A stretch of 64,000 nucleotides of DNA from SAR324 cluster bacterium (GTDB lineage Bacteria > SAR324 > NAC60-12): positions 25,206 to 89,205 of the forward strand of contig JANQJU010000095.1 in the NCBI GenBank assembly GCA_028281495.1, given 5' to 3'. Position 1 is the stretch's first letter; each line of letters opens with the position of its first letter. The notes under the pieces are model-generated. The model had not been told where the DNA came from, did no database searches, and worked only from the letters and a program-made list of their open reading frames with translations. Both the position numbers and the translations under genes were made by a program. Below are positions 1 to 63,026 of the stretch, piece after piece.

Positions 1-3000
1 CATGTCTCGGAAATAACCACTACGGACGACCCAGAAAAGGAACACAAAAACGTCACGAAACCTGAACCTTCAAAAGTACCCGAAGCTAAGAAGGAGCTCG
101 AAGCTAGGAAGCCCCAGGAAGCCGTCGCCAAAAAGAAACCCAATGCTGTCGAAAAGAAAAAGCCGGAAGGTAAGCAGAGGCCGAACACCAAAAATAAAGC
201 CGCACACAAAAACAAATTAGCCGTCACAGGAAAGAAAAAGCCCGAAGCCGCGGGCAAGAAAACGAAGGAGAACAAAACAGGACCCCCTGATGCAGCCGCT
301 GGCCAACAAACCAAACCTTCCACAAAAAAACATTCATCGGGTGATGCGACTCCTCCCAAGGCGGCGGCTTCCCTAGCGATGAAAGCGAAAGCAACCTCAG
401 GTAACCAACTGGTTGATTTCATGCGTTCCTCACCGACGGTGATGTCACAAAACATCAGCAGTCTGGGCAATGCCATGACTGCCAACATGAATCAGCAAGC
501 GAAGGCCACTTTGGAGGCCCAGCCCAAAATTTCGATGAAAACTTCAGGCAGCCCCGACGGTGGAGCTAGCGTTCCGCCAACTCTCAACAAAGCGGCAGCT
601 CCCCCAAAACCCATCGTGTTGAAAAAAGGACCCGTCCCCAAATACAACAACTCGGTACCTACACAACACTCCAGACAAGACCCCTCTCACATTTCAACTT
701 CCATTGGGGCAAAACCTAAATTGCAAGCCACCGGTTCGGCTGACCCTAAGTTGACCGAACAAGCCAGCAAAGCGGGCAACACAGAGGCCGATGCCGCCCA
801 TGTCGAGTCGTTGGCAACCATTCACAGCAACAATGGGGAAGAACGGGTACAGCCCCAACAGATGGAGTTGCACAAACAAGCCGTTCTTCCGGCTCCCGTT
901 AAGATGGATCAACCTGCGGTGTCGTCGGAGGTCCTGGGTTATGCCACGCAAGATCTGCCAGGCTCAGTTCGCACCCTTTCCGACAAAGCCTTGAAAGCCA
1001 AGATGGAAAGCCAATTGGCTGCCAATGACCAAAAGGTGGAAGCGGCTGTCGCCAAACGCGACCTTGACAACCAACAAGCGATGGAAGCCGCGCAAACCCA
1101 AGCAGCGAAAGAAAGTGCAGCGGCTCAAGCTCAGCAAGATGCGGCTGTGGCCCAAGGAAGAGCGGCTATCTCTTCAAAAAAAGACGAGGCCGCAGCGGAA
1201 ACCGAAGGGGTGATGCACAAATACAAAGGCCAAGTGACTGCCAAGCATAAGGAGACGATGGATAAAGCCAATAAGACCATCGCTGATCACCAAAAGCGTG
1301 CGGATGCAGAAATGGCCAAAGGGGAACAAAAGGCCCAAGCCGAAAAGCGAAAAGCGGAAGCAGAGGCCGCCAGAGAACGCCAGGAAGCCCAGCGTAAAAA
1401 AGACAAAATGCACTGGTGGCAAAAAGTCGGCAGTTTTTTCTCAAGCCTTTGGAGTGCGCTGTCCCGGGCGATCACCGCCATCGTCAGTGTGGTCACTCAT
1501 GTTGTGACAACTGTCCTCAAAGCGGCAAAAAATTTGGCAATTGGCATTCTGAATGCGGCCACCAAAATCTTAACGGTGTTGATTGACCAATTCACCAAAG
1601 CGCTCAAAGCGTTTCTTTCGGTGGCTTTGGCATCCTTTCCAGGGATCCGCGTCAAACTGTTTGCGGCCATTGATGCAGTGGTCAGTGCGGTCAAACAGGT
1701 GATGGACAAAGTCATTTCCTCCCTGAAAAACACCCTGACCAACCTGATCGATACCTTGAGCAAAGCCTATGCTTTTGTTGCCAGTGTCTTCAAAGCGGCA
1801 ATGACCGCAGCCTTGGCCGTTGCCACGGCCATCGTCAAGGGTCGCTTCAGCAGCCTCCCGATGATCCTCTTCCGTGCGGCCTGTGAAGCGGCGGGGATTC
1901 CCCCCGAACCGGTCATCGAGATTTTGAAAAACGCTGCCGATGCCTTCATGGACATCATCAAACATCCGATCAATTTTGTGAAAAACCTGTTCAAAGCCAC
2001 TGCGCTGGGGATCAAACAGTTCGCAAAAGGTTTACCGAAAAAACTGCTGGGCGGTTTGATGTCTTGGCTGTTTGGCAAACTGGCCGAAGCGGGGATCGAA
2101 CTGCCAAAAACATGGGATCTGCCATCGGTCTTCATGTTGATTCTGAAAGTGCTCGGCCTGACCTTGGCCAATGTGAAAGCACGGGCCACCGCCATCCTTG
2201 GCGCAAAAAATATGGCCCGAATCGAGTTTGTGATTGAGCAGGCAAAAACCCTCTTCACCAAGAGTCCGGCAGCGGTGTGGGACCACCTCAAAGCCAAAGC
2301 CCACGAGATGAAAGAGGCGGCCCTCAAAGAAATCAATACTTGGTTGATCACCCGAGTCATCGGAGGACTCATCGAAAAGTTCTCACCTCCGGTGGTTGGG
2401 GCCATCATCGGGGCGATTCAGATGATCATGGCGATGGTCGGCAAAGCCAAACAGATCCTGCAATTGATGGCGGCGGTGTCCAAGAGCATGAAGCTCATTG
2501 CCCTGGGATCGTTGGGGGCAGCGGCCAACAAAATCGACTCGGTGTTGACTCAGAGCATTCCATTGGTGATCAACATGGCGATGGGCTTTTTGGGCATCAC
2601 GGGATTGGCCCAAAAAGTTCAAGATGCCATCCTGAAACTCCAAGAGCCTGCCAACCAGGCCATCGACTTCATCATCAAGAAATTCATTGCCCTGGCCAAA
2701 AGTGCCATGAGTGCGGTGAAGAAGGCTGGCAAAAAAGTGGTCAAAAAAGTGAAAGGCCTGTGGCAGGGCCGCAAAGATTTCACGACCAAAGATGGTGAGG
2801 AGCACGCCGTTTACGTGGATGGCACTGGCAAGGATGCTTCCATCGTGGTGAACCCCGTCCCCAAACAAGAGGTTTCGGCTTATTTGGACAAAGCCGAGAA
2901 AAACCTGCCGGAGAATGACGAATTCAAAGCCAAAGTTCAGGCAGACCTCAGCCAAGCCCGTTCGCTGCTCAGCACCATCGAAGGGGATATGGTGGACGTG

Positions 3001-5121
3001 GACACCAGCAACCAAAAAGCCACCGAGGAGGACTCGAAATCAAAAACTCCAAAACCCGCAACAACCCACGAGACGGGACCTCAAAAACAAGCCCAGAGTG
3101 ATATCGACGAACTGGCCACCATCCTCAAACGGATTATGGATGCCACGGGAGTGGCGATGGAAAGCGACGACACCAATTGGGAAGAGGCGGAACCGGAGGC
3201 TAAAAAGGCCGCCGCCGCCGAGGCAATCGAGACAACCTTCCAAAACAAAACATTCACTCAGAGTGAAATCGATGAAGAGTTGCAACGCGTCAAGAAGAAA
3301 TACGCTCTCAGTGAGGCCTCTTTCGATGTGGACAACAGCCGAATAGCCTTAGCGGCTTCTCCGGCAACATTTTTACCGGTGGAAGCAAACGCAGTTCCAC
3401 CAAGCCTACAAGACGGTGTGGATAGACACGTCAATGATACAGATAACACTGTTGCCGCAACAGGAAACTACCTTAAGGCTACGCATTTCGATGGACCGTT
3501 TCCAAGTCCTGCAGATGAGGTTGACGAAGGTCTACATCGATTTGCTGATATAGGTATTGAGATTCCTCTTGGGGATTCAGGATTAAAAACTCTAGGGAAT
3601 GCACCTCGACGTCCAGGGAGAGTAGAGGCTTTGTTAAGTTCTTATAAAAATGAAGGAAGAGCCGAGGGAGATACTACGTCATATGGTCATTTGGGAGTCG
3701 ATGAAGAAAAGATAATCAAAGGAACGAACAGTGTATCCTACGATGGAGGACATTTGGTGGGAGATCAATTGATGGATAGTCATCATTCATTCAATTTGTT
3801 TGAAGACTGGAACTTGGCACCTCAGGTTGAGAACTTCAACCGAGCAGCTTATTTAAATGTCATTGAAAAACCAGTTGCTAAAGCTATTAAAAACGCAGGT
3901 GCAACAGTCAGTTATACCGTCCAAGTTCAATATCCTGATGATACGTACTCAATTGATCCTTTGAATTTAGCTGCCAATTTGTGGGGGGAGAATAGCCAAA
4001 CCGCAAATCAAATTCGTGATGCAATTATATATAAAAAAGCTCCAAATGAACCTTTAGAACTCAAAAGACGCACACCGGGGTATTGGTGGGCCCGTGCTCA
4101 AATAAAAGAAGGAGGACCGATTCAGTCGGGAAATATTAATCAGTACAAAAATGTTTCTCGGACAATGGAGCCTGATGATGTGAGAGATAATGAAGATTAC
4201 AGCCCTCCTGATGGCGAGCACGCCATATATCTATTGACAGTCGATGGTAATGTTCATGAATCTTCCAGTCGAGCTTTTGAAGCGGCTCCAAGTGCGGAAG
4301 CGGCTCAACGTATTAATTATGTTGCTCAAAACAGCGTAGAAATAACGAGCCGTCAAAAGACTTTTGACCCACCAGCACCAGCACCAGCGGAACAGGCTGC
4401 AGCGTCAGCCGGGCTACCAGCAGCCCCGGCAACAGGGGGAACCAATGGCAGTCCAGACGATCAACAGGCAGCAGCGGCACCACCGGCAGCCCCGGCAACA
4501 GGGTTAAGCTCGCGCAGTCGAGACGATGAATCGGAAGCCCGGCAATGGCCATACGATCAACTGGCCGCCGCGTCACCAGCAGCCCCGCCAACAGAGGGAA
4601 TCGGGCACAGTCCAGACTATCATGATCATATGGCAGCCTGGCTAACGGAAGCCATGCCAGAACGTGAAGGCGCTGAGGAAAATGGTAGCAATCAAGGTAT
4701 GGGTGCAGAATACAAAAAAGTAAAGAAACCTGGTCGTAAACTTAGGAATGATGGTGATGGTAAGGCACCTATAGTGCGTAATGATGCCTCATTAATCACA
4801 AAACCTGCGGAAGAAACATCATCGACAAATCGTTCTCATATGGAAACCGTGACATCGGCAGACCTGTTACCAGAAGACATGCAAAATAATGGAGGCACTA
4901 CAGGGACTGCGAAAATCGAATCAGTGACAAGTCGTCCTTCGAAGAGAAAAGGAGGTGCTGGTGCAGAATTGCCTGATGAAGGTAACTCGTCTGAGGAAAG
5001 TGACTCGCTTCCTGAAGAAGGTGAACCGGATAATATAAAGAGAGAAAAAGAGGATCCTCCTCCTCCGTCTAATGATCCTCAGGCGAAGGAGGGTGGTGCA
5101 GACAGGCCTGATAATTCTTAG
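1..5121 (+). CDS. Giant polymorphic-toxin-like protein, 5'-partial, with internal EssD/YeeF-type (Endonuclease_NS_2-like) nuclease module
   Basis: Frame 1 has no stop from base 1 through the tracked ATG at 379, so the ORF enters from upstream. It has a Lys/Pro/Ala-rich and coiled-coil N-part and a long hydrophobic/amphipathic helical core. Then comes YDGGHLVGDQL..NLAPQVENFNRAAY..VSYTVQVQYPDD (nt ~3730-3960), the GHL..NLxPQ..N pattern I associate with EssD/YeeF beta-beta-alpha-Me nucleases. The tail is disordered, acidic and Pro-rich. Confidence 0.75.
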   Translation, partial: HVSEITTTDDPEKEHKNVTKPEPSKVPEAKKELEARKPQEAVAKKKPNAVEKKKPEGKQRPNTKNKAAHKNKLAVTGKKKPEAAGKKTKENKTGPPDAAAGQQTKPSTKKHSSGDATPPKAAASLAMKAKATSGNQLVDFMRSSPTVMSQNISSLGNAMTANMNQQAKATLEAQPKISMKTSGSPDGGASVPPTLNKAAAPPKPIVLKKGPVPKYNNSVPTQHSRQDPSHISTSIGAKPKLQATGSADPKLTEQASKAGNTEADAAHVESLATIHSNNGEERVQPQQMELHKQAVLPAPVKMDQPAVSSEVLGYATQDLPGSVRTLSDKALKAKMESQLAANDQKVEAAVAKRDLDNQQAMEAAQTQAAKESAAAQAQQDAAVAQGRAAISSKKDEAAAETEGVMHKYKGQVTAKHKETMDKANKTIADHQKRADAEMAKGEQKAQAEKRKAEAEAARERQEAQRKKDKMHWWQKVGSFFSSLWSALSRAITAIVSVVTHVVTTVLKAAKNLAIGILNAATKILTVLIDQFTKALKAFLSVALASFPGIRVKLFAAIDAVVSAVKQVMDKVISSLKNTLTNLIDTLSKAYAFVASVFKAAMTAALAVATAIVKGRFSSLPMILFRAACEAAGIPPEPVIEILKNAADAFMDIIKHPINFVKNLFKATALGIKQFAKGLPKKLLGGLMSWLFGKLAEAGIELPKTWDLPSVFMLILKVLGLTLANVKARATAILGAKNMARIEFVIEQAKTLFTKSPAAVWDHLKAKAHEMKEAALKEINTWLITRVIGGLIEKFSPPVVGAIIGAIQMIMAMVGKAKQILQLMAAVSKSMKLIALGSLGAAANKIDSVLTQSIPLVINMAMGFLGITGLAQKVQDAILKLQEPANQAIDFIIKKFIALAKSAMSAVKKAGKKVVKKVKGLWQGRKDFTTKDGEEHAVYVDGTGKDASIVVNPVPKQEVSAYLDKAEKNLPENDEFKAKVQADLSQARSLLSTIEGDMVDVDTSNQKATEEDSKSKTPKPATTHETGPQKQAQSDIDELATILKRIMDATGVAMESDDTNWEEAEPEAKKAAAAEAIETTFQNKTFTQSEIDEELQRVKKKYALSEASFDVDNSRIALAASPATFLPVEANAVPPSLQDGVDRHVNDTDNTVAATGNYLKATHFDGPFPSPADEVDEGLHRFADIGIEIPLGDSGLKTLGNAPRRPGRVEALLSSYKNEGRAEGDTTSYGHLGVDEEKIIKGTNSVSYDGGHLVGDQLMDSHHSFNLFEDWNLAPQVENFNRAAYLNVIEKPVAKAIKNAGATVSYTVQVQYPDDTYSIDPLNLAANLWGENSQTANQIRDAIIYKKAPNEPLELKRRTPGYWWARAQIKEGGPIQSGNINQYKNVSRTMEPDDVRDNEDYSPPDGEHAIYLLTVDGNVHESSSRAFEAAPSAEAAQRINYVAQNSVEITSRQKTFDPPAPAPAEQAAASAGLPAAPATGGTNGSPDDQQAAAAPPAAPATGLSSRSRDDESEARQWPYDQLAAASPAAPPTEGIGHSPDYHDHMAAWLTEAMPEREGAEENGSNQGMGAEYKKVKKPGRKLRNDGDGKAPIVRNDASLITKPAEETSSTNRSHMETVTSADLLPEDMQNNGGTTGTAKIESVTSRPSKRKGGAGAELPDEGNSSEESDSLPEEGEPDNIKREKEDPPPPSNDPQAKEGGADRPDNS
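4417..4597 (+). repeat. Three copies of a ~21-nt GC-rich unit (CCAGCAGCCCCGGCAACAGGG-like) encoding PAAPATG / PAAPPTEG in the toxin tail
   Basis: Copies read at 4417-4437, 4483-4503 and 4576-4597, all in the coding frame of the large ORF. Confidence 0.8.
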
Positions 5122-5244: not shown

Positions 5245-6846
5245 ATGACTATTGAATCAAATGCATACAAAAAAGAATTTACGGAAACCACAACTCAGGA
5301 AAAGGGAGTTTGGCTGGGAGATTCCATCATTTGGAAACAGGTCGGAGCCTTTTATCAAGACACGGGCATTTCAGCCTGGGAAAGTGCGATCCCCTACCTG
5401 GTGACCAGCAATCCTCGAATTGCTGCTTCTTACGTCGAGATGGCGTTGGCTTTTATGGAAGATTGGATGAGACAAAACGGCAAACTGGCGGCCACTTGCC
5501 AATTCGTTGAGCTGGGAGCCGGACATGGCAGTTTCGCCTTGATGATGCTACGCGCATTGGCAGAGCGAGAAAAGGACTTTCGAGGGTTGGGTGTTCGCGT
5601 TCGTTACCTCTTGACGGATTTAGCTGCTGTTAATGTGGAAGCCTGGAAAAGTGATCCCTGGCTGAAAAACTGGTTGAACTCTGATGAGATTCAAGTGGCT
5701 CAATTTGACTGCATGCAGCAACAACCCGACTTGAAACCAATCAACTCGGAGGAAGGTCCCATCATTTTTATTGCCAACTATTTGTTCGATTCCTTACCTC
5801 ATGAAGCCTTTTTGTTGGAAGGCAAGGAAATACTTCGTGCCGAAACGTTCATCACGGCGAATGCCCAATCGAAGGACCCCAATGATTGGAAAATGAGTCT
5901 GGATTTTAAACCGTGCCCCATCGAGAGCTTGGAAGAAACAACGACAGAATTGCTGGAAGAATACAGGAAGCTGAGAGTTCAAGGGTGTGTTTTAATACCC
6001 GTGGGTGCCGTCCAGTGTATTGAAAATTTAAGGCAGTTGAGCAATGACCGTTTTCTGCTTTTGTGCTCGGATAAGGCACTATCCACTGAAAACAGTATTC
6101 AACACCGGAATCCCGCCGAAATTACGGCGTTCATGCATGCATCCATGCTAGTGAACCTACATGCCCTGATGCTTTATTTTCAGCGCAAAGGCGGGTGTGC
6201 TTGGATGCAGAAAACACAGCAGCAGTCCCTCTCTTCAGCAGCCTTCAGCATGGGAGTGGACTCTACTCAAATGCGCCACACTGACCGGGCCTTTTCACAG
6301 CAGCTTGACCAAAACAGTCCGGGAGACCTTTACAACTTGTCAACACAACTCTTGGAGCAGCGTTTTTCCTTAAATCTGGGCAGCATGCTGTCTCTGTTAA
6401 AGCTCATGGAATGGGATGCTTTGGTTTTTGAAGGCCTATACGATGCGATTCTTGCTTACTTGCCCTCCGCCACGGGGAGTGAGGTGTCGGATTTGCTGGA
6501 TGCTCTGCCATTGATTGCGGAGCGGAGATATCCGCTGCCCAGCTCGGGCGACACCCTGTTTCACATTGCGCACCTGCTGCAAACGCTTCAATGCTGGCGA
6601 TCCGCGATTAAACATTATCAGAACCGGATTGTTGAACGAGGGGATTCGGCGGAAGTGAGTTACAATCTTGGGTTATGCTTTAACGCGATAGAGGACCCCC
6701 ACACGGCAAAGGCGTGTTTTCAGCAGGCTTTGGAACTCAACCCAGACTTTCTTTTGGCTCAGGGTTGGCTTTATCGGCTCAATGCCCCACCAGATTCCAT
6801 TCCCGTTGGAGCCTCTAATACAGAACAAGCAGCTGCAATAATTTAA
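5245..6846 (+). CDS. MidA/NDUFAF7-like class I SAM-dependent methyltransferase with C-terminal TPR
   Basis: IPYLVTSNP..., QFVELGAGHGSFALMMLRAL (SAM-binding G-x-G loop) and IIFIANYLFDSLPHEAF resemble the Methyltransf_28 (MidA) pattern. The C-terminus YNLGLCFNAIEDPHTAKACFQQALELNPDF is TPR-like. Confidence 0.5.
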   Translation: MTIESNAYKKEFTETTTQEKGVWLGDSIIWKQVGAFYQDTGISAWESAIPYLVTSNPRIAASYVEMALAFMEDWMRQNGKLAATCQFVELGAGHGSFALMMLRALAEREKDFRGLGVRVRYLLTDLAAVNVEAWKSDPWLKNWLNSDEIQVAQFDCMQQQPDLKPINSEEGPIIFIANYLFDSLPHEAFLLEGKEILRAETFITANAQSKDPNDWKMSLDFKPCPIESLEETTTELLEEYRKLRVQGCVLIPVGAVQCIENLRQLSNDRFLLLCSDKALSTENSIQHRNPAEITAFMHASMLVNLHALMLYFQRKGGCAWMQKTQQQSLSSAAFSMGVDSTQMRHTDRAFSQQLDQNSPGDLYNLSTQLLEQRFSLNLGSMLSLLKLMEWDALVFEGLYDAILAYLPSATGSEVSDLLDALPLIAERRYPLPSSGDTLFHIAHLLQTLQCWRSAIKHYQNRIVERGDSAEVSYNLGLCFNAIEDPHTAKACFQQALELNPDFLLAQGWLYRLNAPPDSIPVGASNTEQAAAII

Positions 6847-6936: not shown

Positions 6937-7212
6937 TTGAAAAGATATATCGATATACCAGAACAAATTGCTTCTGATCTTAATATTCCTCAAGGAAATG
7001 GACAACAAAGACATGTCTTGGAAGCTTATGTAGCGGCAAAGTATAATGAAGGCTTGCTCACCTCATTTCAAGTTGGGCAATTGCTTGGACATGAGACCAG
7101 ATGGGATACAGACAAGTTCTTAAAAGATCATCATTGCCCTTCCGGTTATACTGACGCTGATCTAGAGGCAGACCTAAATATTCCTGATTCTCTATTTAAG
7201 CCATCAAAATAA
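6937..7212 (+). CDS. UPF0175-family antitoxin-like protein (TTG start)
   Basis: 91 aa. LLTSFQVGQLLGHETRWDTDKFLKDHHCPSGYTDADLEADL matches the UPF0175 pattern (helix-turn-helix plus Y-x-x-E/D-DL-E-x-DL tail). A PIN-like ORF follows 1 nt downstream. Confidence 0.6.
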   Translation: MKRYIDIPEQIASDLNIPQGNGQQRHVLEAYVAAKYNEGLLTSFQVGQLLGHETRWDTDKFLKDHHCPSGYTDADLEADLNIPDSLFKPSK

Positions 7213-7213
7213 A

Positions 7214-7468
7214 GTGTCTACTGCTGTCATCGATTCTAGTGTCATTCATTATTTAGTGCTCATAGATGGTGCACATCTCTTACCGATATTATTTGAGAAG
7301 GTATATCTCGCAGAAGAAGTCTATCGTGAATTGACCCACCGACGTACTCCCAAAAAAGTACGGGATTTTATCTCACAAGATTATCCGTGGCTTGAAATCC
7401 ATACATCGCCATTGCAAACCTCAGAAAGACCAATTTTTGGATTTCAGAGAAACATATTGCAAGACTGA
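7214..7468 (+). CDS. PIN-like (DUF3368-type) toxin, apparently 3'-truncated
   Basis: The N-terminus VIDSSVIHYLVLIDGAHLLPILFEKVYLAEEVYRELT fits the PIN-like partner of UPF0175. At 84 aa it lacks the C-terminal half typical of the family (~150 aa). IS debris follows. Confidence 0.45.
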   Translation: MSTAVIDSSVIHYLVLIDGAHLLPILFEKVYLAEEVYRELTHRRTPKKVRDFISQDYPWLEIHTSPLQTSERPIFGFQRNILQD

Positions 7469-8296: not shown

Positions 8297-9934
8297 ATGA
8301 AGAATGGTTCATCTGAGGGAGGGGTTATGTCTTGGAAACAACGATTGCTATCGTGGTGTTTGGTTTTGTTGGCCGTGTTGAACATAGCGGGAACCTGCGA
8401 CACAGAAAAAACGTATTCGTCGACCAAGTTGACGATTGTCAGTGGCTCGGAAAACAAAATGCTGGAAGATCTGATTCAAGAGTTTGCTGAGCGCAAACGA
8501 ACGACGATTCAGGTGGAATACCAAGGCAGTGTGGATATTTCCAACCTGATACGACAAGGCACTGCCAATCCCTATGATGCGGTGTGGCCTGCCAATAGCA
8601 TCTGGATCAACTTGGGAGATACCCAAGGAGTGATTAAGCATACAGAAAGTATCTTGCGTTCTCCGGTAGTGTTTGGAGTCCGACAAAGTAAAGCTCAAGA
8701 GTTGGGATGGAATCAAAACCCAGTGACCGTTGCCGACATCTTGACCGCTGCTGAATCGGGTCAATTGAAATTTGCGATGACCAGCGCAACCCAATCCAAT
8801 TCAGGAGCCAGTGCCTACCTGGGTTTTCTTTCGGCATTTGCCGAAAGTCCCGATGTTTTGTTGGAAACCCACCTTCAGCAGTCGGCGGTTGTTGACCGTG
8901 TAAAACGGCTATTAAAAACCATCGATCGGTCCTCGGGGAGTTCCGGTTGGTTGAAGGATCTGATGTTGGAATCGCGAGAAGGACAGTATGATGCAATGGT
9001 GAATTATGAGGCGATGGTGATTGAATACAATCAACATCTTGGCAATCGTGAACCATTGTGTGCGGTTTATCCGGTGGATGGGTTGGTTGTAGCAGACAGC
9101 CCGTTGGGTTATGTGAATAAAGGGGATGTCGAGAAAGAACAGCTATTTCAAGAATTGAAAGCGTATCTCTTATCAGACGCAGTCCAGAACGAATTGATTA
9201 AGCGAGGGCGTCGTGCCGGCGGGTTATTTGGGTTTGACTCCAGTAAAACCAGTGCGGATGTCTTCAATCCCGGCTGGTGTATTGATGTAGACCGCACACT
9301 CACCTCGGTGCGTGTGCCTTCACAATCGGTGATTGAGGAAGCCTTGTTATTATACCAAGAGCGATTGCGAAAGCCTTCCTTTACTGCGTATGTGTTGGAT
9401 TATTCAGGAAGCATGGCCGATGCTGGCGAAGCCGATATGAAAGCGGCAATGGCGTTATTGCTGGATCAAACCCAAGCGCAAGAACATTTGTTACAACCTA
9501 CGCCACGAGATATTCATCTCGTAATCCCCTTCAACGGAGCACCTATTGGCATTTGGCAGGTGCAAGGTAACGATCCCCAGGAGTTGAAAGCCTTGTTGAC
9601 CAAAATCCAACAGCTTCCGGCAAACGGCGGGACCGATATTTATTCTCCAACGGGCTTAGCCCTCGAACTCATTGCCACGGCCGATGTGAATCTTCAGGAT
9701 TATTTTCCGGCAGTGATTTTAATGACTGATGGAAAATCCGAGATGGAGATGAATGATTTATTTAATCAACATCCATCGTATCAACCCCACCAAGATATTC
9801 CGGTTTTTGGCATTGCATTTGGTAATGCCCATGACAGCCAATTGCGAGAAATTACTAACTTTGCCCGAGGGCGTTTATTTGATGGAAAACGCAACTTGGT
9901 TCATGCCTTCAAACAAGCCAAAGGCTACAATTGA
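8297..9934 (+). CDS. Secreted periplasmic-binding-protein-like domain fused to a von Willebrand factor A (vWA) domain
   Basis: N-terminal signal/TM segment (a start at 8327, MSWKQRLLSWCLVLLAVL, after GAGGGAGG is likelier). The C-terminal half has the MIDAS motif YVLDYSGSM, GGTDIYSPTGLAL and AVILMTDGKSE. Confidence 0.7.
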   Translation: MKNGSSEGGVMSWKQRLLSWCLVLLAVLNIAGTCDTEKTYSSTKLTIVSGSENKMLEDLIQEFAERKRTTIQVEYQGSVDISNLIRQGTANPYDAVWPANSIWINLGDTQGVIKHTESILRSPVVFGVRQSKAQELGWNQNPVTVADILTAAESGQLKFAMTSATQSNSGASAYLGFLSAFAESPDVLLETHLQQSAVVDRVKRLLKTIDRSSGSSGWLKDLMLESREGQYDAMVNYEAMVIEYNQHLGNREPLCAVYPVDGLVVADSPLGYVNKGDVEKEQLFQELKAYLLSDAVQNELIKRGRRAGGLFGFDSSKTSADVFNPGWCIDVDRTLTSVRVPSQSVIEEALLLYQERLRKPSFTAYVLDYSGSMADAGEADMKAAMALLLDQTQAQEHLLQPTPRDIHLVIPFNGAPIGIWQVQGNDPQELKALLTKIQQLPANGGTDIYSPTGLALELIATADVNLQDYFPAVILMTDGKSEMEMNDLFNQHPSYQPHQDIPVFGIAFGNAHDSQLREITNFARGRLFDGKRNLVHAFKQAKGYN

Positions 9935-9971
9935 AGCATCGTATTACACGGAACTATGAAGGAGACGGATC

Positions 9972-10610
9972 GTGTTTGCATTACGCTGGTTGCCACGGGA
10001 GTTGTTATCGGGGGGGCTATCATTAGGTGTCTATCTGGGTATGGAATGGGGGTTAACTTTAGTGTGGTGGGTGGATGTAACGGCCGCTTTATTGACTTAC
10101 GGAGCCTTGCATCTCGTGATTGCTCGAAAAAAGGAAGCTGATGAAATTCAGGCCCGGGGGCTTTCCCTCACCCAAGCTGAACTGCATGCTAAGGTGAACA
10201 ACGGGCTGGACATGGCCCGACAATTTGCAGCATTGGCCAAAACGATTCCGCAGTCGCCTATGGCTCCTGTGCTACAGGACATCAGTCAAGTGGTGGAACA
10301 GATCTTTAACCATTTCTTAGACGATCCAAGCGACTATCGAAAAGTCTTTGCCTTTGTGGATAACGACATCTCTTTAGGTTTAAAACTTGCCGAGTTCTAC
10401 ACGAAATACAGTCAAACTCCGGGATTAGGATCCGAAGAACAGCAGATGTTACAGGATAAAGAGAAAGTGATTCACAAATTTTTAGAAGGATGCCAGCAAT
10501 GCTATCGCAAATGTTTGGAAGATGATTTTCAAGAGTTTGACCTCCATGCCGACTATCTTCATAAATTGTTGGACTCTGAATCATTCACCATCACGACCGG
10601 AAAATATTAA
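9972..10610 (+). CDS. XpaC-like (5-bromo-4-chloroindolyl phosphate hydrolysis protein family) membrane protein
   Basis: GTG start after AAGGAGA. Two N-terminal TM helices plus a helical domain, ~210 aa, encoded in the same operon upstream of a TelA-like gene (one PBP-like gene lies between them), recalling the xpaC-yaaN pairing known in Bacillus subtilis. Confidence 0.45.
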   Translation: MFALRWLPRELLSGGLSLGVYLGMEWGLTLVWWVDVTAALLTYGALHLVIARKKEADEIQARGLSLTQAELHAKVNNGLDMARQFAALAKTIPQSPMAPVLQDISQVVEQIFNHFLDDPSDYRKVFAFVDNDISLGLKLAEFYTKYSQTPGLGSEEQQMLQDKEKVIHKFLEGCQQCYRKCLEDDFQEFDLHADYLHKLLDSESFTITTGKY

Positions 10611-10619
10611 GGAGGCTGT

Positions 10620-11714
10620 GTGAAAAAATACCGTACCCTGGCAGGACTCGTCATTTTGATTGTGGGAATTGGTATCGTTGCTTTGTTGCAGCTACTCGAT
10701 AACGATGTCTTCCAAGAAGTCCGTGCCCCCGATGCGATCACTGTGAAAGGCTATTATGGAGGGGAAAAAAGGGCATTTTTGCACAACGAAGCGGTTCTGG
10801 ATTTACTGAAGCAGCAATATGGCATCACCTTAGACCTCACCCGTCGAGGGAGTGTAGCTATGGTCACAACCGAATCCTTGGCGGGCTTTGATTTTGTGTG
10901 GCCTTCCAATCAGGTCACTGTGCAGTTGTTCGAGCAAACCCATCCGACGGTTACCTTTAAATCTCAAATCGTGTTCAATTCCCCGTTGGTGATTTACACA
11001 TGGGGGGAAATTGCGGAGGCTTTGGAACAACGCGGTGTGGTGGAAAAGCGAGGTGAGCATTATTACATCTTTCGCGCTAAAGAACTGATGGAATTGGTGT
11101 TGCAGAAAACCAAGTGGTCAGAGTTTGGCCTGAACCGTTGGGGAAGTATTGCTTTAGTGACCACCGATCCCCGTAAATCCAACTCAGGCAATATGGGGGC
11201 AGGCCTGATTGCCAATTTGCTGCAGGGCGAAGTGGTGTCCTTAGACACCCTACCTCAAGTGGAATCACAACTGGTGGACTACTATAAATCATTGGGATTG
11301 ATGGAAGCGTCGTCAGGCACATTGTTTGACAAATTTATCAAATCCAATGGATCGGTAGGCATGATTTTGGGATATGAAAACCAAATGATTGAATTTTCCA
11401 TTGAGCACCAAGAGGCCTTAGAATTGATTCAGCAGCGGGTTCGTGTGCTGTATCCCGAACCCACGATCATGACCAGCCATCCGTTAATCTCTCTGAATGA
11501 AAAGGGGCAACGCTTGCAACAAGCACTCGAAGATCCTCAAATCCAAGAACATGCTTGGCGAGATCATGGGTTCCGTACCGGGATCAGCGGTATCCAAAAC
11601 AATCCTAATGACTTGAAAGGGTTGAAGGTTCCTGAATTCATCACCAACGCCATGCCCATGCCCAGTGCACGGGTCATGAGTCGGATTATCGAGACTTTGA
11701 ATCAGAACCTCTAA
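10620..11714 (+). CDS. Membrane-anchored periplasmic-binding-protein-like protein, paralogous to the N-domain of the 8297 gene
   Basis: GTG start after AAGGAGG and an N-terminal TM helix. ITVKGYYGGEKRAF...FDFVWPSNQV parallels LTIVSGSENKML...YDAVWPANSI in the vWA protein. Confidence 0.55.
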   Translation: MKKYRTLAGLVILIVGIGIVALLQLLDNDVFQEVRAPDAITVKGYYGGEKRAFLHNEAVLDLLKQQYGITLDLTRRGSVAMVTTESLAGFDFVWPSNQVTVQLFEQTHPTVTFKSQIVFNSPLVIYTWGEIAEALEQRGVVEKRGEHYYIFRAKELMELVLQKTKWSEFGLNRWGSIALVTTDPRKSNSGNMGAGLIANLLQGEVVSLDTLPQVESQLVDYYKSLGLMEASSGTLFDKFIKSNGSVGMILGYENQMIEFSIEHQEALELIQQRVRVLYPEPTIMTSHPLISLNEKGQRLQQALEDPQIQEHAWRDHGFRTGISGIQNNPNDLKGLKVPEFITNAMPMPSARVMSRIIETLNQNL

Positions 11715-11746
11715 ATTTTCTCCACTTCCTTTGTTAAGAGGTTGTT

Positions 11747-12898
11747 ATGAGCACAGAAACTTCTTCGACCAGCACGGATCTGACCTTTCCCGGATTACAA
11801 AGCAAACAAGAATTGATTGCCACCGACTCGTTCACTCCAGAAACCTGGAAACGGGTGGAACAAGAAGTGGACAACATTCCGTTTGTGGTGGGAGGTCGTT
11901 TGGCGCTCAACACGACGATCCCACTAACCTTTGGGGCCAAACCTCAGGAGGCGTTGGGGCAGTTTTTGGAAACACTGATTGGCGATATGAAAGCCAAGGA
12001 TGCAGGCATTGCGGGTGATTTGGCTATTGAGTTAGCCCGTGGCATCGAAATGATGAACTTGCATCAAGTGAAAGAAGAACTCACGCAACCACAAAGCATG
12101 TTAGGTAAATTGTGGAAGTCGTTGACCTTTGCTTCCTCGGCCATTGAGGGTTTTTGGGCGCAACATCAAGAGGTGCTTAAGTTGATTGATGCGATCAAGC
12201 AAAAGACGGAAACCCGAAAACGAGCCTTATTGTTCGATTTGGAAAAACTCGACAAACTTTTGGCTCAGTATCAGGTGCATGCGGATGAAGTGCGGCTCTA
12301 TATTGCGGTAGGGGATCGTGTGTTGGAAAAAGCGGAATCCGAGTTTCAAAGCTTGTCAACCAAAACACAAAACGATCCCGAACGCGTGGCAGCTTTGAAG
12401 GATTTCCGTGATTGGATCACCAGTTTTGATGTGCGATTGTTGAATCTGAAAGTTGCTTTCACACAGTCAGTGACAACAGCACCAACGAAAGTCCGTTTGA
12501 TTCAAGAGTCTCAAAAGGTGGAAATTCAGAACATCATTGAATCGATCTTGTTCGATTTACCCAAATTGATGGATGCAATCATCCAAATGGGCAGCTTGTC
12601 CAACATCAAAGAGGCGCAAGCAGAAGACGATGCACGAAGGAAAGTGACGGAACAGTTGGATTCCTTGAGTGCGGAAGCCATACAGCAGGCCTACTTACAA
12701 TCCAAATCGAGTCAAGGTCGCGCATTAGAAACGGTGGAACGGTTGAACACTGTGGCCGAGCATCTGGTCCAAACCTTGGAACAAGGCAAAGCGTTAGAAG
12801 CCCAAAATGAGGAAAAACGCCAGCAAGCCGAAGCGGGGTTGATGGAGATTCAACACAAAGTAGCGCAAGCCTTAGAAGACGCCTCGCGTCCGGCATAA
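11747..12898 (+). CDS. TelA/YaaN-like toxic anion resistance family protein
   Basis: 383 aa and all-helical, which fits TelA family size. Operon context with the XpaC-like gene supports the call. I cannot verify a family-specific motif by eye. Confidence 0.5.
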   Translation: MSTETSSTSTDLTFPGLQSKQELIATDSFTPETWKRVEQEVDNIPFVVGGRLALNTTIPLTFGAKPQEALGQFLETLIGDMKAKDAGIAGDLAIELARGIEMMNLHQVKEELTQPQSMLGKLWKSLTFASSAIEGFWAQHQEVLKLIDAIKQKTETRKRALLFDLEKLDKLLAQYQVHADEVRLYIAVGDRVLEKAESEFQSLSTKTQNDPERVAALKDFRDWITSFDVRLLNLKVAFTQSVTTAPTKVRLIQESQKVEIQNIIESILFDLPKLMDAIIQMGSLSNIKEAQAEDDARRKVTEQLDSLSAEAIQQAYLQSKSSQGRALETVERLNTVAEHLVQTLEQGKALEAQNEEKRQQAEAGLMEIQHKVAQALEDASRPA

Positions 12899-14258: not shown

Positions 14259-17200
14259 TTATCCATGGTTGGGCGGGATATTGAGATCAGGAATCTTTAA
14301 AGCATTGCCTATGAAGACCACATTAAACGTAGTAATTTCTATTTTATATCGCTCCATCAATTCTTTACTCCTTGGATGCAATCGAATTTTCCAAGTGGCA
14401 TATAGGGGCGGCCAATTGGTATCGGCCCGAAAGCTATCTTTTCCCGATTGTCGCTTTGACCGTGTGATTTCCCCATTGATAACCTTCACTTCAGACAAAT
14501 ACCGCGTCGAATCTGTACTCTGAAAGTATCGTAGCTTGGTTGGAATTTGATCTGAAATTGGGTCAATGGAATTCTCATCATTTGGATTCACGATCACTTT
14601 ATCCGCAACCAAATTTTGGCAATGGGTTTCTATATCAATCTCCAATTTTTTATCTGACAGAGATTTACTATTGCTTAGCTCCAAATCAATATCCACATGC
14701 TCAACTCGAAAGAAATATAACTTTCTGGTCTCTTCAAAAAATGAAGTATCTGACATTAAATCCAACTCAACAGTTTCTTGATTATTCAGTTGGTCTATTA
14801 GAGCTTGTTTTTCAATAGAGTAGATGACTTTTTCGCCCTTTATCATGCTTTTGGTCATTGGATAGTTTCTGTTGATGATTTTACTTGTCGTCAGATCTGA
14901 CAATTGGTTCTTAAGTTCAAAGGCCTTTTTTTGAATATCAATGAGTGCAATATCCAGTTCAGATTTGCGCAAGAATCGATAGAAAGAGGCGTTCTCGTAA
15001 TCAAGAATCAGTTGAGTAAGCTCCCGATACAAATCAATTTTTGATGTTAAAGTCATTAAGCCCAGTGCCTCGACCTGGGCCTGTTCGGCTTTACTTTCGT
15101 CCTCGAATTCCTTGGCAAGCTCCTTTTGCTGGCGGAGATTTTCACATTTCAACAATTCCACTTGGAGTTTGATTTCCAAATCAAAACGCTTCTCCATCAA
15201 ATTAAAGCCACCTTCGGCCTCGAAACTCATCTGTTCATAGGCTCGCAAAAAGTTTCTTGCACTTTCCTCATTGTAGATATTGTGGATACGGTCTCTTATT
15301 TCGGCATGATTTGTTTTCAATCTCACCAACCAAGCTTTTGCTTCACTCAATTGTTTGATGGGGTCCGGTTCCAGTTCAAGGTCATTTCGTAAACCTGAAT
15401 TTGCGAACAGACTGGAATCGGTTTGATCCAAATCTATGGAAATATTGTGTGCTGCGGACTTCAATTCATCCAAAAGGGGCAAGTATTGGTTTTTATAGTT
15501 TGCTAGCGCGATGAATGCGTTGGCCAATTTTTGCCCGTCGATAGTGCCTTGATGAAAGTCTTGCAAATTTCGTTTAAGCCACATTCTAGACCTATTTTTT
15601 TTCCAACCCTTGTAAAATGATTCCTTCAATTTTTTGCCATAAGGATTGTCCTTGAATGATTTTTCAATATCATCTTTAAGTGTTTCAATTTCTTGGGGCC
15701 ATTTATCGTTTATGTTTTCATTCAATAGATTGAGTTGCTTTATTTCCTTATCGAGTCTCTGTCTATCTTGTGCTTGGTTCTCTCCAGAAGCATTGTCCAT
15801 TTCCTCCTTTTTTTGACGAATGGTGTTTTCGATCTCGGGATATTTTTGTTGGTTAGCTGCGATCCAATCTTCCAACTGTTGTTTTCTTTCTGCGTTTTTA
15901 CCTAGGTTATCAGAATACATTTTGTTGAAGCCTTGGCTGTATTCGTCCCCTTTTTTTGAAATGATTGTTGATGAAATTTTTTCAAATGATTCAACGATGC
16001 TTTTTGTATCCTCATCTTGTATTAGAGCTTTAATACCAACTCCAACGCCACCCACAACAGCCCCCAAAAATAGAGGTGCCGTTGCTCCACCCGTCGCAAT
16101 GGTGACCACTAGGCTTCCCAACATACCAGCAACAGACTCAATGGCATTGAATATCAATTCTTGCCTTCGCTTTTTTTCGAGAGCATCCAATTGGATTTCA
16201 AGTACGTGAAGCAAATACGGTGTGGAATCTCCCAAGTCTTGGATAGCTAGAGACACTTTTTTGATTTCTCTGTCAGTTTGACCAATTGTCTTCTTATAAA
16301 GTTCAATAGTTTCTTGAGAACTATTCCTGGTATTCACTTGAATCAGGTGATGATACTCAGCATTTTTTTTGAACGATTTTAAGAGGGTTGTTAAATTATC
16401 GAGGTTTGTTTCTTTTGATTCCAAAATTTGGATATTTTCGGAAACAAAAATTAGCTTTTTGTAATACTCATCTACATAATACTCTGGAATAGGGTATGGA
16501 TTATCTCTATCTCCGGTGGCTAAAAACTTTTTAACAATGCCGTCCAGGAAGTTCTTCACTAGTATTTTTTGAGAGTTCAAATTTTCGTTTTCAAATTTAC
16601 ATGAACTCAACCAATTGACAATAGATTGTGCTTCTAAATAGTATTTTGACAGTAACAATTCATTGATTAAATCCGATTGAGCGATCACAAATCGTTCTAA
16701 ATTTGGATGTTTCCGCCAAAGCTTTTGGTCTGTTCCAAAGTAGTGAGGGTACAAAAAAAGGGGTTTTTTCAGTGAATAATCTCTAGAAGCGAGTCGTTGT
16801 TCTTCACTAAAATTTCTTGCTGCGTTGATTGTTTGCGTTGAATTTTTTTCAACTTTGTGAAGACTACCTTCACCACTGTACCAAACCTTGAATGAGTAGA
16901 TTGGAGCGCTTTTATTGGATTTAGATAATTGAATATAAGAGTGATCCTTGGTTTCTACTTTGCTTAGTTGGGTAAGTTTAGAGTCAGCATCTATTTTGCT
17001 ATTTGAATGATATATATTCTGATAAGTTATTTGTAACCCGCTATATTCATCCAAACAGAATAGTTGATTAGGATCTTCATCATCAGGAATTACAAAAATT
17101 TGTCGCGCAACAATAGTTAAGCTCGTGCTGACTAAGTTCCGTAGCCATGTGTTCTTGGAGCTTTTGTCTATCAATAGAGTGTCACAGATAATAAACACAT

Positions 17201-17495
17201 TGAGTAAACAGGGTATGTCAGTTCGATCAATTGGATCTCTTTGTTGGTCTGTATGAGTATTTTTTTTTAGTTGGTACTGATTGTATAGCTTATTCAGGAT
17301 ATCTTGTTGCTTTGCAAAACTAAAAATCCATTGCTGAGCTACAAATGTTGTTGCCGTACAATACTCTTGATCAATTTGTCTTGTATGATCGTCATTGCCA
17401 GTTACTTCTTCTGGAATAAAACCATGTCTGTCTAACCAGAATTGATAGTCATCTAGAGTATCGAATTGAAGTGGATCAAGAATTTTTGTTTGCAT
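14259..17495 (-). CDS. Orphan 1078-aa protein with central glycine-zipper membrane segment and long coiled coils
   Basis: AT-rich ORF overlapping the upstream 421-aa ORF by 20 nt. AGMLGSLVVTIATGGATAPLFLGAVVGGVGVGIKAL is a Gly/Ala-zipper hydrophobic hairpin flanked by Lys/Glu/Gln-rich heptad-like segments. I recognise no catalytic motif. Confidence 0.6.
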   Translation of the reverse strand: MQTKILDPLQFDTLDDYQFWLDRHGFIPEEVTGNDDHTRQIDQEYCTATTFVAQQWIFSFAKQQDILNKLYNQYQLKKNTHTDQQRDPIDRTDIPCLLNVFIICDTLLIDKSSKNTWLRNLVSTSLTIVARQIFVIPDDEDPNQLFCLDEYSGLQITYQNIYHSNSKIDADSKLTQLSKVETKDHSYIQLSKSNKSAPIYSFKVWYSGEGSLHKVEKNSTQTINAARNFSEEQRLASRDYSLKKPLFLYPHYFGTDQKLWRKHPNLERFVIAQSDLINELLLSKYYLEAQSIVNWLSSCKFENENLNSQKILVKNFLDGIVKKFLATGDRDNPYPIPEYYVDEYYKKLIFVSENIQILESKETNLDNLTTLLKSFKKNAEYHHLIQVNTRNSSQETIELYKKTIGQTDREIKKVSLAIQDLGDSTPYLLHVLEIQLDALEKKRRQELIFNAIESVAGMLGSLVVTIATGGATAPLFLGAVVGGVGVGIKALIQDEDTKSIVESFEKISSTIISKKGDEYSQGFNKMYSDNLGKNAERKQQLEDWIAANQQKYPEIENTIRQKKEEMDNASGENQAQDRQRLDKEIKQLNLLNENINDKWPQEIETLKDDIEKSFKDNPYGKKLKESFYKGWKKNRSRMWLKRNLQDFHQGTIDGQKLANAFIALANYKNQYLPLLDELKSAAHNISIDLDQTDSSLFANSGLRNDLELEPDPIKQLSEAKAWLVRLKTNHAEIRDRIHNIYNEESARNFLRAYEQMSFEAEGGFNLMEKRFDLEIKLQVELLKCENLRQQKELAKEFEDESKAEQAQVEALGLMTLTSKIDLYRELTQLILDYENASFYRFLRKSELDIALIDIQKKAFELKNQLSDLTTSKIINRNYPMTKSMIKGEKVIYSIEKQALIDQLNNQETVELDLMSDTSFFEETRKLYFFRVEHVDIDLELSNSKSLSDKKLEIDIETHCQNLVADKVIVNPNDENSIDPISDQIPTKLRYFQSTDSTRYLSEVKVINGEITRSKRQSGKDSFRADTNWPPLYATWKIRLHPRSKELMERYKIEITTFNVVFIGNALKIPDLNIPPNHG

Positions 17496-18741
17496 CAGAC
17501 TCCTTGTTTGTAACAGCGTTATCTAAATCGTCTAAAAAAACAAAAAGTGTTTCAAGCCGGGCCTCAACGAATCGAATGAGATGGAAATTGTCCCACATAA
17601 AGGCTTCGATCTCTTGTGTACTGAAACTATTCGTGCCTCTTATATGTTGTAAGTGTTCCTCAAGACTGATTCGGGTGCTGACAATCCAATCTTTGCCGCT
17701 CGTTTTGCTGCTCTTTACCTCCTCTTCAACATCATACCACTTATAAAAATTGTTGAGTTTGGTAATTAAATTTTTCAGTGAAGCAATATGGGTCTGATAG
17801 GTTTCCATAAAATCTTGGCAACTTTGATACCAACAAATGGTGAAGCTATTTACAAAGAATTTGTTTTCGGCTTCGTCCAACCCTGCGATCATGTTGTCAC
17901 ACATTCTTTGAAAATAAAAAGGGATGTTCCAATGGCCCGCTTCTTTGCGCTTTCGAATATCGGCCTTTTTTTCTTGGAAATTAAACTTAAGTGAATTGAG
18001 TGAGAAGTCGGATTTTTCCAAAACTATTTCTTTCTTAAACTTTCTCTCATAATCGTCACCATTATCAAAGAAACCTTTAGCTTCATGGTCGCCCAAGAAA
18101 TAATATACTTTGAGACTATCTATATAGGATGTTGGTTGAAGATTATCGTTGATTATTGTCAACATTTTATCGTTTTCACCTTGGAAATCTTGTTCGATTT
18201 TAATCAATGATTTCTGAATTCTGTCTAATTTATCTTTTATAAATTTTATCAATTCGATTAGTTGATCGATTTTGAATACGACTTCTGATTGGCTAAAAGT
18301 CCCTGGGTTTTCAAGCTGTTCTTTAAAATATTTGATTGTTTCATTAATTGTTTCTTTTGGTTGAGGATGCTTCTCACTGTCTCCGAACCTTAGTTCATAA
18401 AAATCGTTTTTTAGGTTTCTTAATCCACCTTCCTCAAGTTTTTCTCTAGATATAGAGTCAAAAGTATTGATGGATTTGATTAAATCCAGATAGTCCATTC
18501 TTTCGGAAACAAAGTGGATTTGATCATAACAATGTTGAAAGATACGATCTTGACTAGAGGGGGCAATTAAATGAGATTTGTTTTCTACCCAAGCTGGCGA
18601 ATTTTTAATCCACTCTTCGATTTGTTTTCTTGTGTATGGTAACGCAAAATTGAATTTAGCTTTTTCAGATTTAGCCGCAGGTAAACCGGCAAGAGTTTTT
18701 AACGAGTCATATTCTTTTTGTGTAATGCCACTAACACACAT
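17476..18741 (-). CDS. Orphan 421-aa protein, first gene of the two-gene island operon
   Basis: Long uninterrupted AT-rich ORF, same strand as the 1078-aa ORF and overlapping it. Predicted soluble and helical, with no recognisable domain. Confidence 0.55.
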   Translation of the reverse strand: MCVSGITQKEYDSLKTLAGLPAAKSEKAKFNFALPYTRKQIEEWIKNSPAWVENKSHLIAPSSQDRIFQHCYDQIHFVSERMDYLDLIKSINTFDSISREKLEEGGLRNLKNDFYELRFGDSEKHPQPKETINETIKYFKEQLENPGTFSQSEVVFKIDQLIELIKFIKDKLDRIQKSLIKIEQDFQGENDKMLTIINDNLQPTSYIDSLKVYYFLGDHEAKGFFDNGDDYERKFKKEIVLEKSDFSLNSLKFNFQEKKADIRKRKEAGHWNIPFYFQRMCDNMIAGLDEAENKFFVNSFTICWYQSCQDFMETYQTHIASLKNLITKLNNFYKWYDVEEEVKSSKTSGKDWIVSTRISLEEHLQHIRGTNSFSTQEIEAFMWDNFHLIRFVEARLETLFVFLDDLDNAVTNKESDANKNS

Positions 18742-36490: not shown

Positions 36491-36602
36491 AGAACTCCTT
36501 TGTTATATCCAGCCCCCTTCCTTATAGCTGCGAGTTTAGCATCAAAAAAGAGAGGGCGTTGTTTGAGTGATCAAGTCAGAAACCATCGCCCAATTTGAGA
36601 GG

Positions 36603-62330: not shown

Positions 62331-62338
62331 GAGGTCCA

Positions 62339-63016: not shown

Positions 63017-63026
63017 AAAAGGAGGA

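Follow-up and report, generated by a model that had tools for sequence, protein, structure and literature searches.

The first 5.1 kb of a 64,000-nucleotide (nt) stretch of a SAR324 cluster bacterium contig (JANQJU010000095.1, positions 25,206 to 89,205 of the forward strand, hereafter the window) is occupied by the 3′ part of a giant open reading frame (ORF). This ORF probably encodes a large, modular, nuclease-carrying and tape-measure-related cargo or effector of a contractile injection system (CIS), which is a phage-tail-like particle. The C-terminal module is predicted to be a beta-beta-alpha-Me-type (Endonuclease_NS_2) nuclease with intact catalytic-type residues, and the central core is conserved in proteins encoded at injection-system loci. 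From these comparisons we infer loading, delivery, nuclease activity, and an injection system in this genome. The effector class has already been described. Peculiar to this copy are the lack of a DUF4157 domain, the lack of a partner gene, and an added acidic tail.

Frame 1 of the plus strand was open from nt 1 through the stop codon at 5119–5121, and the 5′ end of the gene lay beyond the window edge. The database protein P0001 matches its translation with 100% identity and is 1778 amino acids (aa) long, so the window starts at P0001 residue 73. All 1778 codons were uninterrupted. The neighbourhood searches covered the window, and about 25 kb of the 89-kb contig lies outside it. The features of the locus were as follows, with GC3 standing for the G+C content (GC) of third codon positions and eCIS for extracellular CIS.

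1–5121, plus strand: 3′ part of the giant modular ORF, 1706 codons and the stop, equal to P0001 minus its first 72 codons, which lie 5′ of the window
1–975, plus strand: N-terminal region, hydrophilic, of low complexity and rich in Lys/Ala/Pro/Gln (by sequence, hydropathy, and disorder-promoting fraction), extending the leader outside the window
976–1395, plus strand: charged helical segment before the core, rich in Ala/Gln/Lys/Glu; the sequence suggests a coiled coil
1396–2754, plus strand: hydrophobic helical core, tape-measure-related and conserved with DUF4157/eCIS_core proteins (PHROG, BLASTP, and Kyte-Doolittle scan)
2716–2778, plus strand: junction 1, the end of similarity to the paralogue P0002 (P0001 residues 978–998)
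2755–2862, plus strand: pre-toxin module 1 (GLWQGRKDFTTKDGEEHAVYVDG...IVVNPVP), common to P0003–P0006, P0024, and P0026 and not in P0002
3196–4365, plus strand: nuclease cassette, made of pre-toxin module 2, the Endonuclea_NS_2 catalytic region, and a conserved C-terminal subdomain ending in SRQKTF (alignment and profile search)
3220–3430, plus strand: junction 2, where the GC3 changes (best placed at nt 3340), in or beside the conserved ASPATFLP motif at pre-toxin module 2
3292–3378, plus strand: pre-toxin module 2 (...IALAASPATFLP), within the cassette
3610–3945, plus strand: Pfam Endonuclea_NS_2 match (window aa 1204–1315)
3751–3753 (His), 3811–3813 (Asn), 3838–3840 (Asn), and 3865–3867 (Glu), plus strand: putative catalytic residues, with roles assigned by analogy
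4366–5118, plus strand: C-terminal extension of 251 codons, rich in Ala/Pro/Glu/Gly/Ser, disordered, net acidic (45 D/E versus 25 K/R), and free of Cys
5245–6846, plus strand: neighbour gene with Methyltransf_28 (MidA-like, E 1e-10) and TPR_1 (E 1.5e-9) matches

The nuclease cassette and the tape-measure-related core

The original prediction, made from the sequence alone, had placed a nuclease module inside the giant ORF, and this was confirmed by profile search. PF13930 (Endonuclea_NS_2) was matched with an E-value of 1.1e-9 and 39.1 bits (cutoff 27), and PF01223 (Endonuclease_NS) was matched over the same stretch with 5.2e-6 and 26.7 bits (cutoff 23). The motifs GGHL (nt 3745–3756), WNLAPQ, NFN, and IE(K/N)P were present. 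The GGH, the N of WNLAPQ, the N of NFN, a Y, and an E were invariant in 27 cassette proteins and 61 more distant relatives, and all of them were kept here. The module had also been said to lie about 400 codons before the C-terminus. The Pfam match indeed ended 391 codons before the stop; however, the conserved module ran on to window aa 1455 (...SRQKTF, nt 4365), and the extra part comprised only 251 codons.

When the translation of nt 3301–4260 was searched against 5.8 billion proteins, only five matched, at 40–49% identity over the full length of this query. These proteins had 193–538 aa, and the C-terminus of each was ...ARQ(K/Q)TF or lay at most two residues away from this motif. The cassette was also found as stand-alone proteins of 411–538 aa. 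At locus L002, P0021 was the tail end of a frameshifted gene whose rejoined product had 1677 aa and showed the order DUF4157, linker, core, pre-toxin, and the same nuclease. The rejoined protein directly followed sheath, Pvc16_N, and WHD+AAA genes. Its C-terminus aligned with P0001 residues 1138–1527 at 39% identity over the full cassette length, and therefore the cassette limits were set at nt 3196–4365. At locus L015, the cassette adjoined a WHD+AAA gene. The frameshift that splits the giant effector gene of L002 lies at 9900–10010 and is possibly a low-coverage assembly error.

An exhaustive profile search returned 184 representatives, 30 of which spanned the whole cassette at E ≤ 1e-30. 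Endonuclea_NS_2 was matched in 26 of the 27 cassette proteins and in 47 of the 61 more distant relatives, and eCIS_core was matched in 8 and 31 of them, respectively. No LXG/WXG, Rhs, PAAR, VgrG, or other contact-dependent trafficking domain was found in these 88 nuclease relatives, and eCIS_core/DUF4157 was the sole trafficking-type domain found with this nuclease clade. This Endonuclease_NS_2 clade, which comprises roughly 90 clusters at 50% identity, appears dedicated to tape-measure-related CIS effectors.

The central core of the protein matched seven PHROG tape-measure families, with a best E-value of 1.6e-12. Five hydrophobic 19-mers (Kyte-Doolittle at least 1.6) were located in the core at nt 1471–1527, 1777–1833, 2119–2175, 2392–2448, and 2554–2610. 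A search with full-length P0001 returned the paralogue P0002 and 13 further proteins (P0003–P0015) of 1076–2074 aa. The similarity of these 13 proteins was confined to the central region by BLASTP (P0001 residues ~300–1035), where P0016 was also aligned. An N-terminal PF13699 eCIS_core (DUF4157) domain was present in 11 of the 13. Scans of a genome-contig collection with P0001 and with the neighbouring methyltransferase-TPR protein gave no match, and neither did scans of a viral-contig collection with P0002 and with the nuclease cassette.

The two closest non-paralogous core relatives, P0004 and P0005, were both encoded in injection-system clusters. P0004 was located directly 3′ of CIS_TMP, and P0005 was flanked by CIS_TMP (PF19268) and AAA genes (locus set L009/L010). 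Every homologue locus with context contained Afp/PVC-type genes (Pvc16_N, CIS_TMP, and WHD+AAA). The relatives come from cyanobacterial, Burkholderiales, and Bacteroidota-type metagenome-assembled genomes. Tandem effectors were found at L014 78–6734 and L015 4109–10657, with a near-identical leader (…GKVRQRLN.EQKSSQ.EIHPS.GWLQ.KSIDQDSE…) and differing tips, such as AHH + Imm11 and, next in the array, DUF4157 + nuclease. Such tandem arrays, as read from their sequences, suggest leader-defined effector sets for one injection system.

The leader of P0001, which lies outside the window, was read from the full-length protein. Residues 1–35 had a Kyte-Doolittle value of −0.78, and residues 6–21 had a charge of +5. 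In a qualitative comparison, this hydrophilic, disordered, and slightly positive N-terminus fits the eCIS signal features of PMC11297309. The motif LEDNRPEA...LQALADQ was located at residues 39–57 (LEDNRPEA itself at 39–46), and a [FL]xD[NQR]R[PTSE] leader motif was found at residues 28–42 in P0001, P0002, P0020, P0036, P0040, and P0041. Some proteins with a P0001-like leader motif continue into a DUF4157 domain. The original prediction had expected a secretion or trafficking domain at the N-terminus; the full-length protein provided this leader motif but no DUF4157 or LXG/WXG domain. A weak TolA-like match was also detected at window aa 252–467 (E 0.0034).

In characterised systems, cargo is loaded via an Afp15/Pvc15-type AAA+ ATPase and placed in the tube lumen. 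For P0001, the hydrophilic, positive, and disordered N-terminal leader would direct loading as the first step. The coiled coil and the hydrophobic tape-measure-like core would then travel in the tube, and the core may insert in the target membrane after ejection. Finally, the C-terminal Endonuclease_NS_2 module would degrade nucleic acid, most likely DNA, in the receiving cell. The nuclease is an exchangeable cassette within a polymorphic family.

Modular organization and base composition

The paralogue P0002 (1264 aa) was encoded on the same 89-kb contig as P0001. The two proteins shared about 72% identity over residues 1–998 and 81% over residues 141–978. Beyond residue ~998 (nt ~2778), P0002 continued into another tip, which matched PF13930 below the threshold and may represent a different, weakly related nuclease. 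P0024 and P0026 could be aligned colinearly with P0001 from the coiled-coil region through the end of the cassette, at 34% and 32% identity, respectively. Both pre-toxin modules ended in a strand-plus-(S/N)P motif, and relatives carried one or both of them.

The similarities of core and cassette disagreed across the family. P0024 and P0023 shared 32% identity in the core and 63% in the cassette, and P0045 and P0027 shared 56% and 29%, respectively. This disagreement indicates that cassettes have moved between cores. The cassette of P0001 was about equidistant from all other cassettes (29–43%), and the tips varied across P0003–P0016, AHH included. Module shuffling is supported at the family level by these alignments. 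The "long linker" of DUF4157 toxins contains a conserved tape-measure-like core and short pre-toxin modules, and the pre-toxin modules mark sites of tip exchange.

The DNA from about 3.4 kb onward had been described as more AT-rich than the preceding 3 kb. The GC fell from 0.525 at nt 1–3400 to 0.416 at nt 3401–4200, as described, but it climbed back to 0.6–0.68 at nt 4400–4600 (0.72 at first and second codon positions, GC1+2, and GC3 0.42) because this stretch encodes Ala/Pro. The GC3 dropped from 0.64 (codons 430–1113) to 0.32 from nt ~3340 to the stop, with a log-likelihood ratio of 68.6 that was reached in 0 of 500 permutations. The window had a GC of 0.449, its other genes had a GC of 0.446 and a GC3 of 0.45 ± 0.06, and the maximum GC of any 3.4-kb stretch outside the ORF was 0.489. 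Therefore, the GC-rich upstream 3.3 kb deviates more strongly from the window, and the cassette is only moderately AT-rich.

The same GC3 drop was observed in two independent homologues with 32–40% identity. It went from 0.8–0.9 to ~0.5 in the P0024 gene and from 0.5–0.6 to 0.29 in L002. In three homologues (window 1291–4365, L013 131–4780, and L002 5550–10582), the core GC3 exceeded the cassette GC3 by 0.25–0.35, and the local gene average lay between the two values. Because the drop recurs in distant colinear homologues, the GC3 break is a recurrent family property and no proof of a recent swap at this locus. The exchange of the toxic tip by recombination, which the original prediction had proposed, thus stands as modularity of the family but not as a recent event indicated by composition.

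The missing partner, the C-terminal tail, and alternative explanations

In the closest cassette subclade, a Cys-rich protein of 320–356 aa was encoded 3′ of the nuclease on the same strand at 6 of 6 loci with readable downstream sequence. The copies were located at L001 4600–5571, L002 10665–11720, L003 3303–4157, L005 2698–3747, L006 1291–2328, and L015 10730–11800, and they were 31–69% identical to one another. Two PF03692 CxxCxxCC units were detected in three of the four copies scanned first, and no Pfam family matched the L015 copy at E ≤ 0.01. Since AHH-tipped relatives hold Imm11-type genes at the equivalent downstream position, this 2×CxxCxxCC protein is, by its position, a candidate cognate immunity or accessory protein. 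No paper linking CxxCxxCC with immunity was found in the literature, and the protein may represent a new, testable family of nuclease-immunity or accessory proteins. A tblastn search of a plasmid collection with the cassette and with the Cys-rich partner gave no match. At L003, a DDE transposase gene (1630–3018) was inserted between the nuclease and partner genes. A DUF1963 protein was encoded next after the partner at L002 and L015.

At the present locus, no Pfam immunity family, DUF600-type included, was matched in ORFs of at least 60 aa at 4.3–8.3 kb. The earlier statement that no recognisable immunity gene is present is now firmer, because the usual downstream partner of the cassette has been identified and is absent here. 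The locus is therefore a naturally occurring variant that lacks the partner and has an acidic tail in addition, and it bears directly on whether a partner is needed for self-protection. A target other than self is possible.

The next gene was correctly described as encoding a MidA-like methyltransferase-TPR protein. It was separated from the giant ORF by an AT-rich spacer of 123 nt with four in-frame stops, and it had its own AGGA ribosome-binding site. Its GC3 of 0.53 was host-like, compared to 0.34 in the cassette, and no homologue was found at other cassette loci. For these reasons, the suggestion that this protein stands in for immunity is unlikely to hold. The gene lies in the same frame as the giant ORF and was also considered as a fused second domain, but this was rejected since four stops lie between them. 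The small ORFs at 6.7–8.1 kb were considered as immunity candidates and set aside. They included a UPF0175 antitoxin-like ORF (6937–7212, plus strand) and an 84-aa PIN-like stub (7214–7468, plus strand) with a GC of 0.38–0.40, which are probably a decayed type II toxin-antitoxin remnant unrelated to the nuclease; the others had no matches.

The C-terminal tail showed no domain or homologue among 177 collected proteins, the fetched loci, and Pfam, and small repeats occurred within it. Its frame contained no stops, compared to 5–25 in the other five frames. Its GC3 of 0.35 and GC1+2 of 0.61 were coding-like, with a low GC3 as in the cassette. Among 26 other cassette representatives, 17 ended within three residues of ...RQxTF. 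Seven added 65–93 residues that looked helix-hairpin-helix-like by eye and had no Pfam hit, one was truncated, and P0045 added 369 residues ending in an Aspzincin_M35 peptidase. The junction DNA, ACT TTT GAC, was one T short of TTT TGA, which is suggestive of a stop loss, with a chance expectation of about 3 in 16 by our estimate. Two Logan assemblies from separate runs were identical across the tail junction. The Logan contigs with the neighbour gene, L007 and L008, were 100% identical and ended inside the ORF at nt 2230 and 3519.

Several results weigh against a CIS effector. Full-length P0001 had no DUF4157 (eCIS_core) domain even at E ≤ 5, and no injection-system structural gene was found in the 59 kb downstream of the ORF. 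The cassette was modelled in two AlphaFold2 runs (6- and 11-sequence alignments) with predicted local distance difference test (pLDDT) scores of 49 and 58, and the catalytic stretch scored below 50. A Foldseek search of these low-confidence models against the PDB gave no match at E ≤ 0.001, and the beta-beta-alpha-Me fold was not confirmed by them; phmmer and hmmsearch against PDB sequences also gave no match. The search for the partner by tblastn with all copies against the 64-kb window, tail included, detected none (best E 0.039 at an unrelated site). The 251-residue tail was without precedent among the relatives, except for the different tail of P0045. With the partner missing and the tail unprecedented, the gene could be a decaying copy.

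In that case, the protein would be the same kind of effector in a degenerating or silenced state, in which the stop after ...RQKTF was lost, 251 unrelated codons were fused, and the partner was deleted. The 17 relatives that end near the junction, the one missing T, the absent partner, and the tail without homologue or domain all agree with such a history. However, the whole frame of 1778 codons is uninterrupted, and every family-invariant residue is intact. The tail is also free of stops and coding-like in composition, the junction is the same in both Logan assemblies, and a missing T is expected fairly often by chance. Therefore, we regard a degenerating copy as unlikely.

A type VI secretion system (T6SS) effector would be launched from a contractile sheath anchored in the cell and not from an extracellular particle. 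The T6SS is a contractile injection system too, so a tape-measure-like core and a leader would not be out of place, and DUF4157 is sometimes present in T6SS effectors (PMC11297309). However, the T6SS markers PAAR, VgrG, Hcp, MIX, and FIX were absent from P0001 and its relatives, and no T6SS gene was found in the window. The homologue loci with context were all of the Afp/PVC type. This origin is quite improbable.

The possible stop loss may also be read in another way. The change from TTT TGA to TTT GA- would have added a tail that acts in cis for the missing partner. This acidic, disordered tail would act as an autoinhibitor, for instance by mimicking DNA, and block the nuclease inside the producing cell up to the moment of unfolding, loading, or cleavage. 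If this were true, the protein would be a self-contained toxin without need of an immunity gene. We consider it very doubtful.

EssD/EsaD and YeeF are type VII LXG-type toxins in which a PF13930 nuclease forms the C-terminal toxin on a trafficking N-terminus. The module had been called EssD/YeeF-like, and a contact-dependent polymorphic toxin of this or a similar kind, with immunity provided elsewhere, would leave the producer through one of its secretion systems and act against neighbouring bacteria. The shared Pfam family stands, and the two paralogues with a conserved N-terminal part and alternative C-terminal tips would suit such a toxin. The trafficking part of the likeness does not stand: neither P0001 nor its 88 nuclease relatives had an LXG/WXG (WXG100), Rhs, PT-HINT, or CdiA-type domain, and eCIS_core was the only domain of this type linked to them. 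In addition, the DUF600-type immunity gene was lacking downstream, and the relatives mapped to injection-system loci. A contact-dependent toxin is thus highly improbable.

It is equally hard to credit a structural tape measure protein of a prophage or tailocin with an incidental C-terminal nuclease domain: the seven PHROG families and the very large size with coiled coil and hydrophobic helices would fit, but the PHROG matches span only about 230 of 1778 residues, the 59 kb downstream contain no phage or tail genes, the homologues in L009 and L010 adjoin a separate, dedicated CIS_TMP gene, and a second paralogue with a different tip lies on the same contig.

Known systems and other genes in the window

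Descriptions of large, tape-measure-related CIS effectors with a nuclease date from 2024–2026, and missing adjacent immunity genes are a recognised puzzle. The closest characterised analogue of P0001, set beside it by description, appears to be Tme (BN159_7576) of Streptomyces davawensis, which combines DUF4157, disorder, a coiled coil, a transmembrane tape-measure-like region, and a C-terminal endonuclease (PMC11126660). Tme was toxic in E. coli via its catalytic His and acts on the producer's own mycelium, and no immunity protein was reported (PMC11126660). Like Tme, P0001 is very large and mostly disordered, with a coiled coil, tape-measure-like hydrophobic helices, and a putative DNA/RNA non-specific endonuclease of the His-Asn type near the C-terminus. 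However, Tme has an N-terminal DUF4157 domain that P0001 lacks, and the Tme nuclease is EndA-like (DRGH motif), whereas P0001 best matches PF13930 and has a GGH motif. From the catalytic His to the C-terminus there are ~200 residues in Tme and 455 in P0001, owing to the extra tail.

The Sle1-type effectors of actinobacterial CIS are without DUF4157 and have swappable C-termini (PMC13277306). P0001 resembles Sle1/Sle2 as a probable tape-measure-related cargo without its own DUF4157, in which a coiled coil on the N-terminal side is combined with a functional domain at the C-terminus that can be exchanged. One Sle1/Sle2-type member showed nucleic-acid-directed toxicity and had an immunity gene directly downstream (PMC13277306). 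Sle1 has a small DUF4157 protein as its neighbouring partner, together with sheath genes, whereas P0001 is known without its upstream neighbours, and the lineages differ. Work on AlgoCIS showed that loading is signalled by the disordered N-terminus and does not require DUF4157 (bioRxiv 10.64898/2026.05.27.728243).

The eCIS-associated toxins commonly have long linkers (more than 1000 aa) and often lack immunity genes (Geller et al. 2021, PMC8213781). In Afp/PVC-like operons, the DUF4157-linked toxins are encoded in the 3′-terminal position (PMC8213781; Danov et al. 2024, PMC11297309). P0001 shares with these toxins the long protein, the linker of more than 1000 aa, the C-terminal toxin, the hydrophilic positive N-terminus, and the lack of an identifiable immunity gene. 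However, the defining DUF4157 domain was absent from P0001, and likewise from P0002, P0024, P0026, and P0031. Pne1, from the metamorphosis-associated contractile structures of Pseudoalteromonas luteoviolacea, is a PF13930 nuclease and eCIS cargo that kills eukaryotic cells, with no immunity protein described (bioRxiv 10.1101/543298). Unlike P0001, Pne1 has 496 aa and no tape-measure-like core, and the two were compared at the level of the shared Pfam family.

The window proteins that were looked up all formed singleton clusters, and the window showed no HIP1 enrichment. The remaining part of the window contained several other gene clusters. The cluster at 8297–12898 (plus strand) encoded an SBP_bac_11+VWA protein, a PF10112 (Halogen_Hydrol) protein, a 364-aa protein without a match, and TelA, and it resembles a stress module of the tellurite or toxic-anion-resistance type. 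Two overlapping ORFs of 1078 and 421 aa (14259–17495 and 17476–18741, minus strand) had a GC of 0.35–0.37 compared to 0.45 for the window. They showed no Pfam or PHROG match and look foreign. A MACPF (perforin-like) protein gene adjoined that of a GH30-like glycosidase at 28742–32852 (minus strand). This pair was followed at 33269–40337 by genes for an NAD_binding_8 protein (1073 aa) and a Ser/Thr kinase-AAA_16-TPR protein (1244 aa).

An apparently complete type I-E CRISPR-Cas set was located at 56587–63773 (plus strand), with Cas3 (HD + helicase), Cse1, Cse2, Cas7/CT1975, Cas5, and a Cas6e-like protein. Any CRISPR array of this set would lie past the window end. Directly upstream of the CRISPR-Cas genes, the ORF at 55095–56492 (minus strand) encoded pentapeptide repeats and a C-terminal TIR domain, and it is a possible defence gene.

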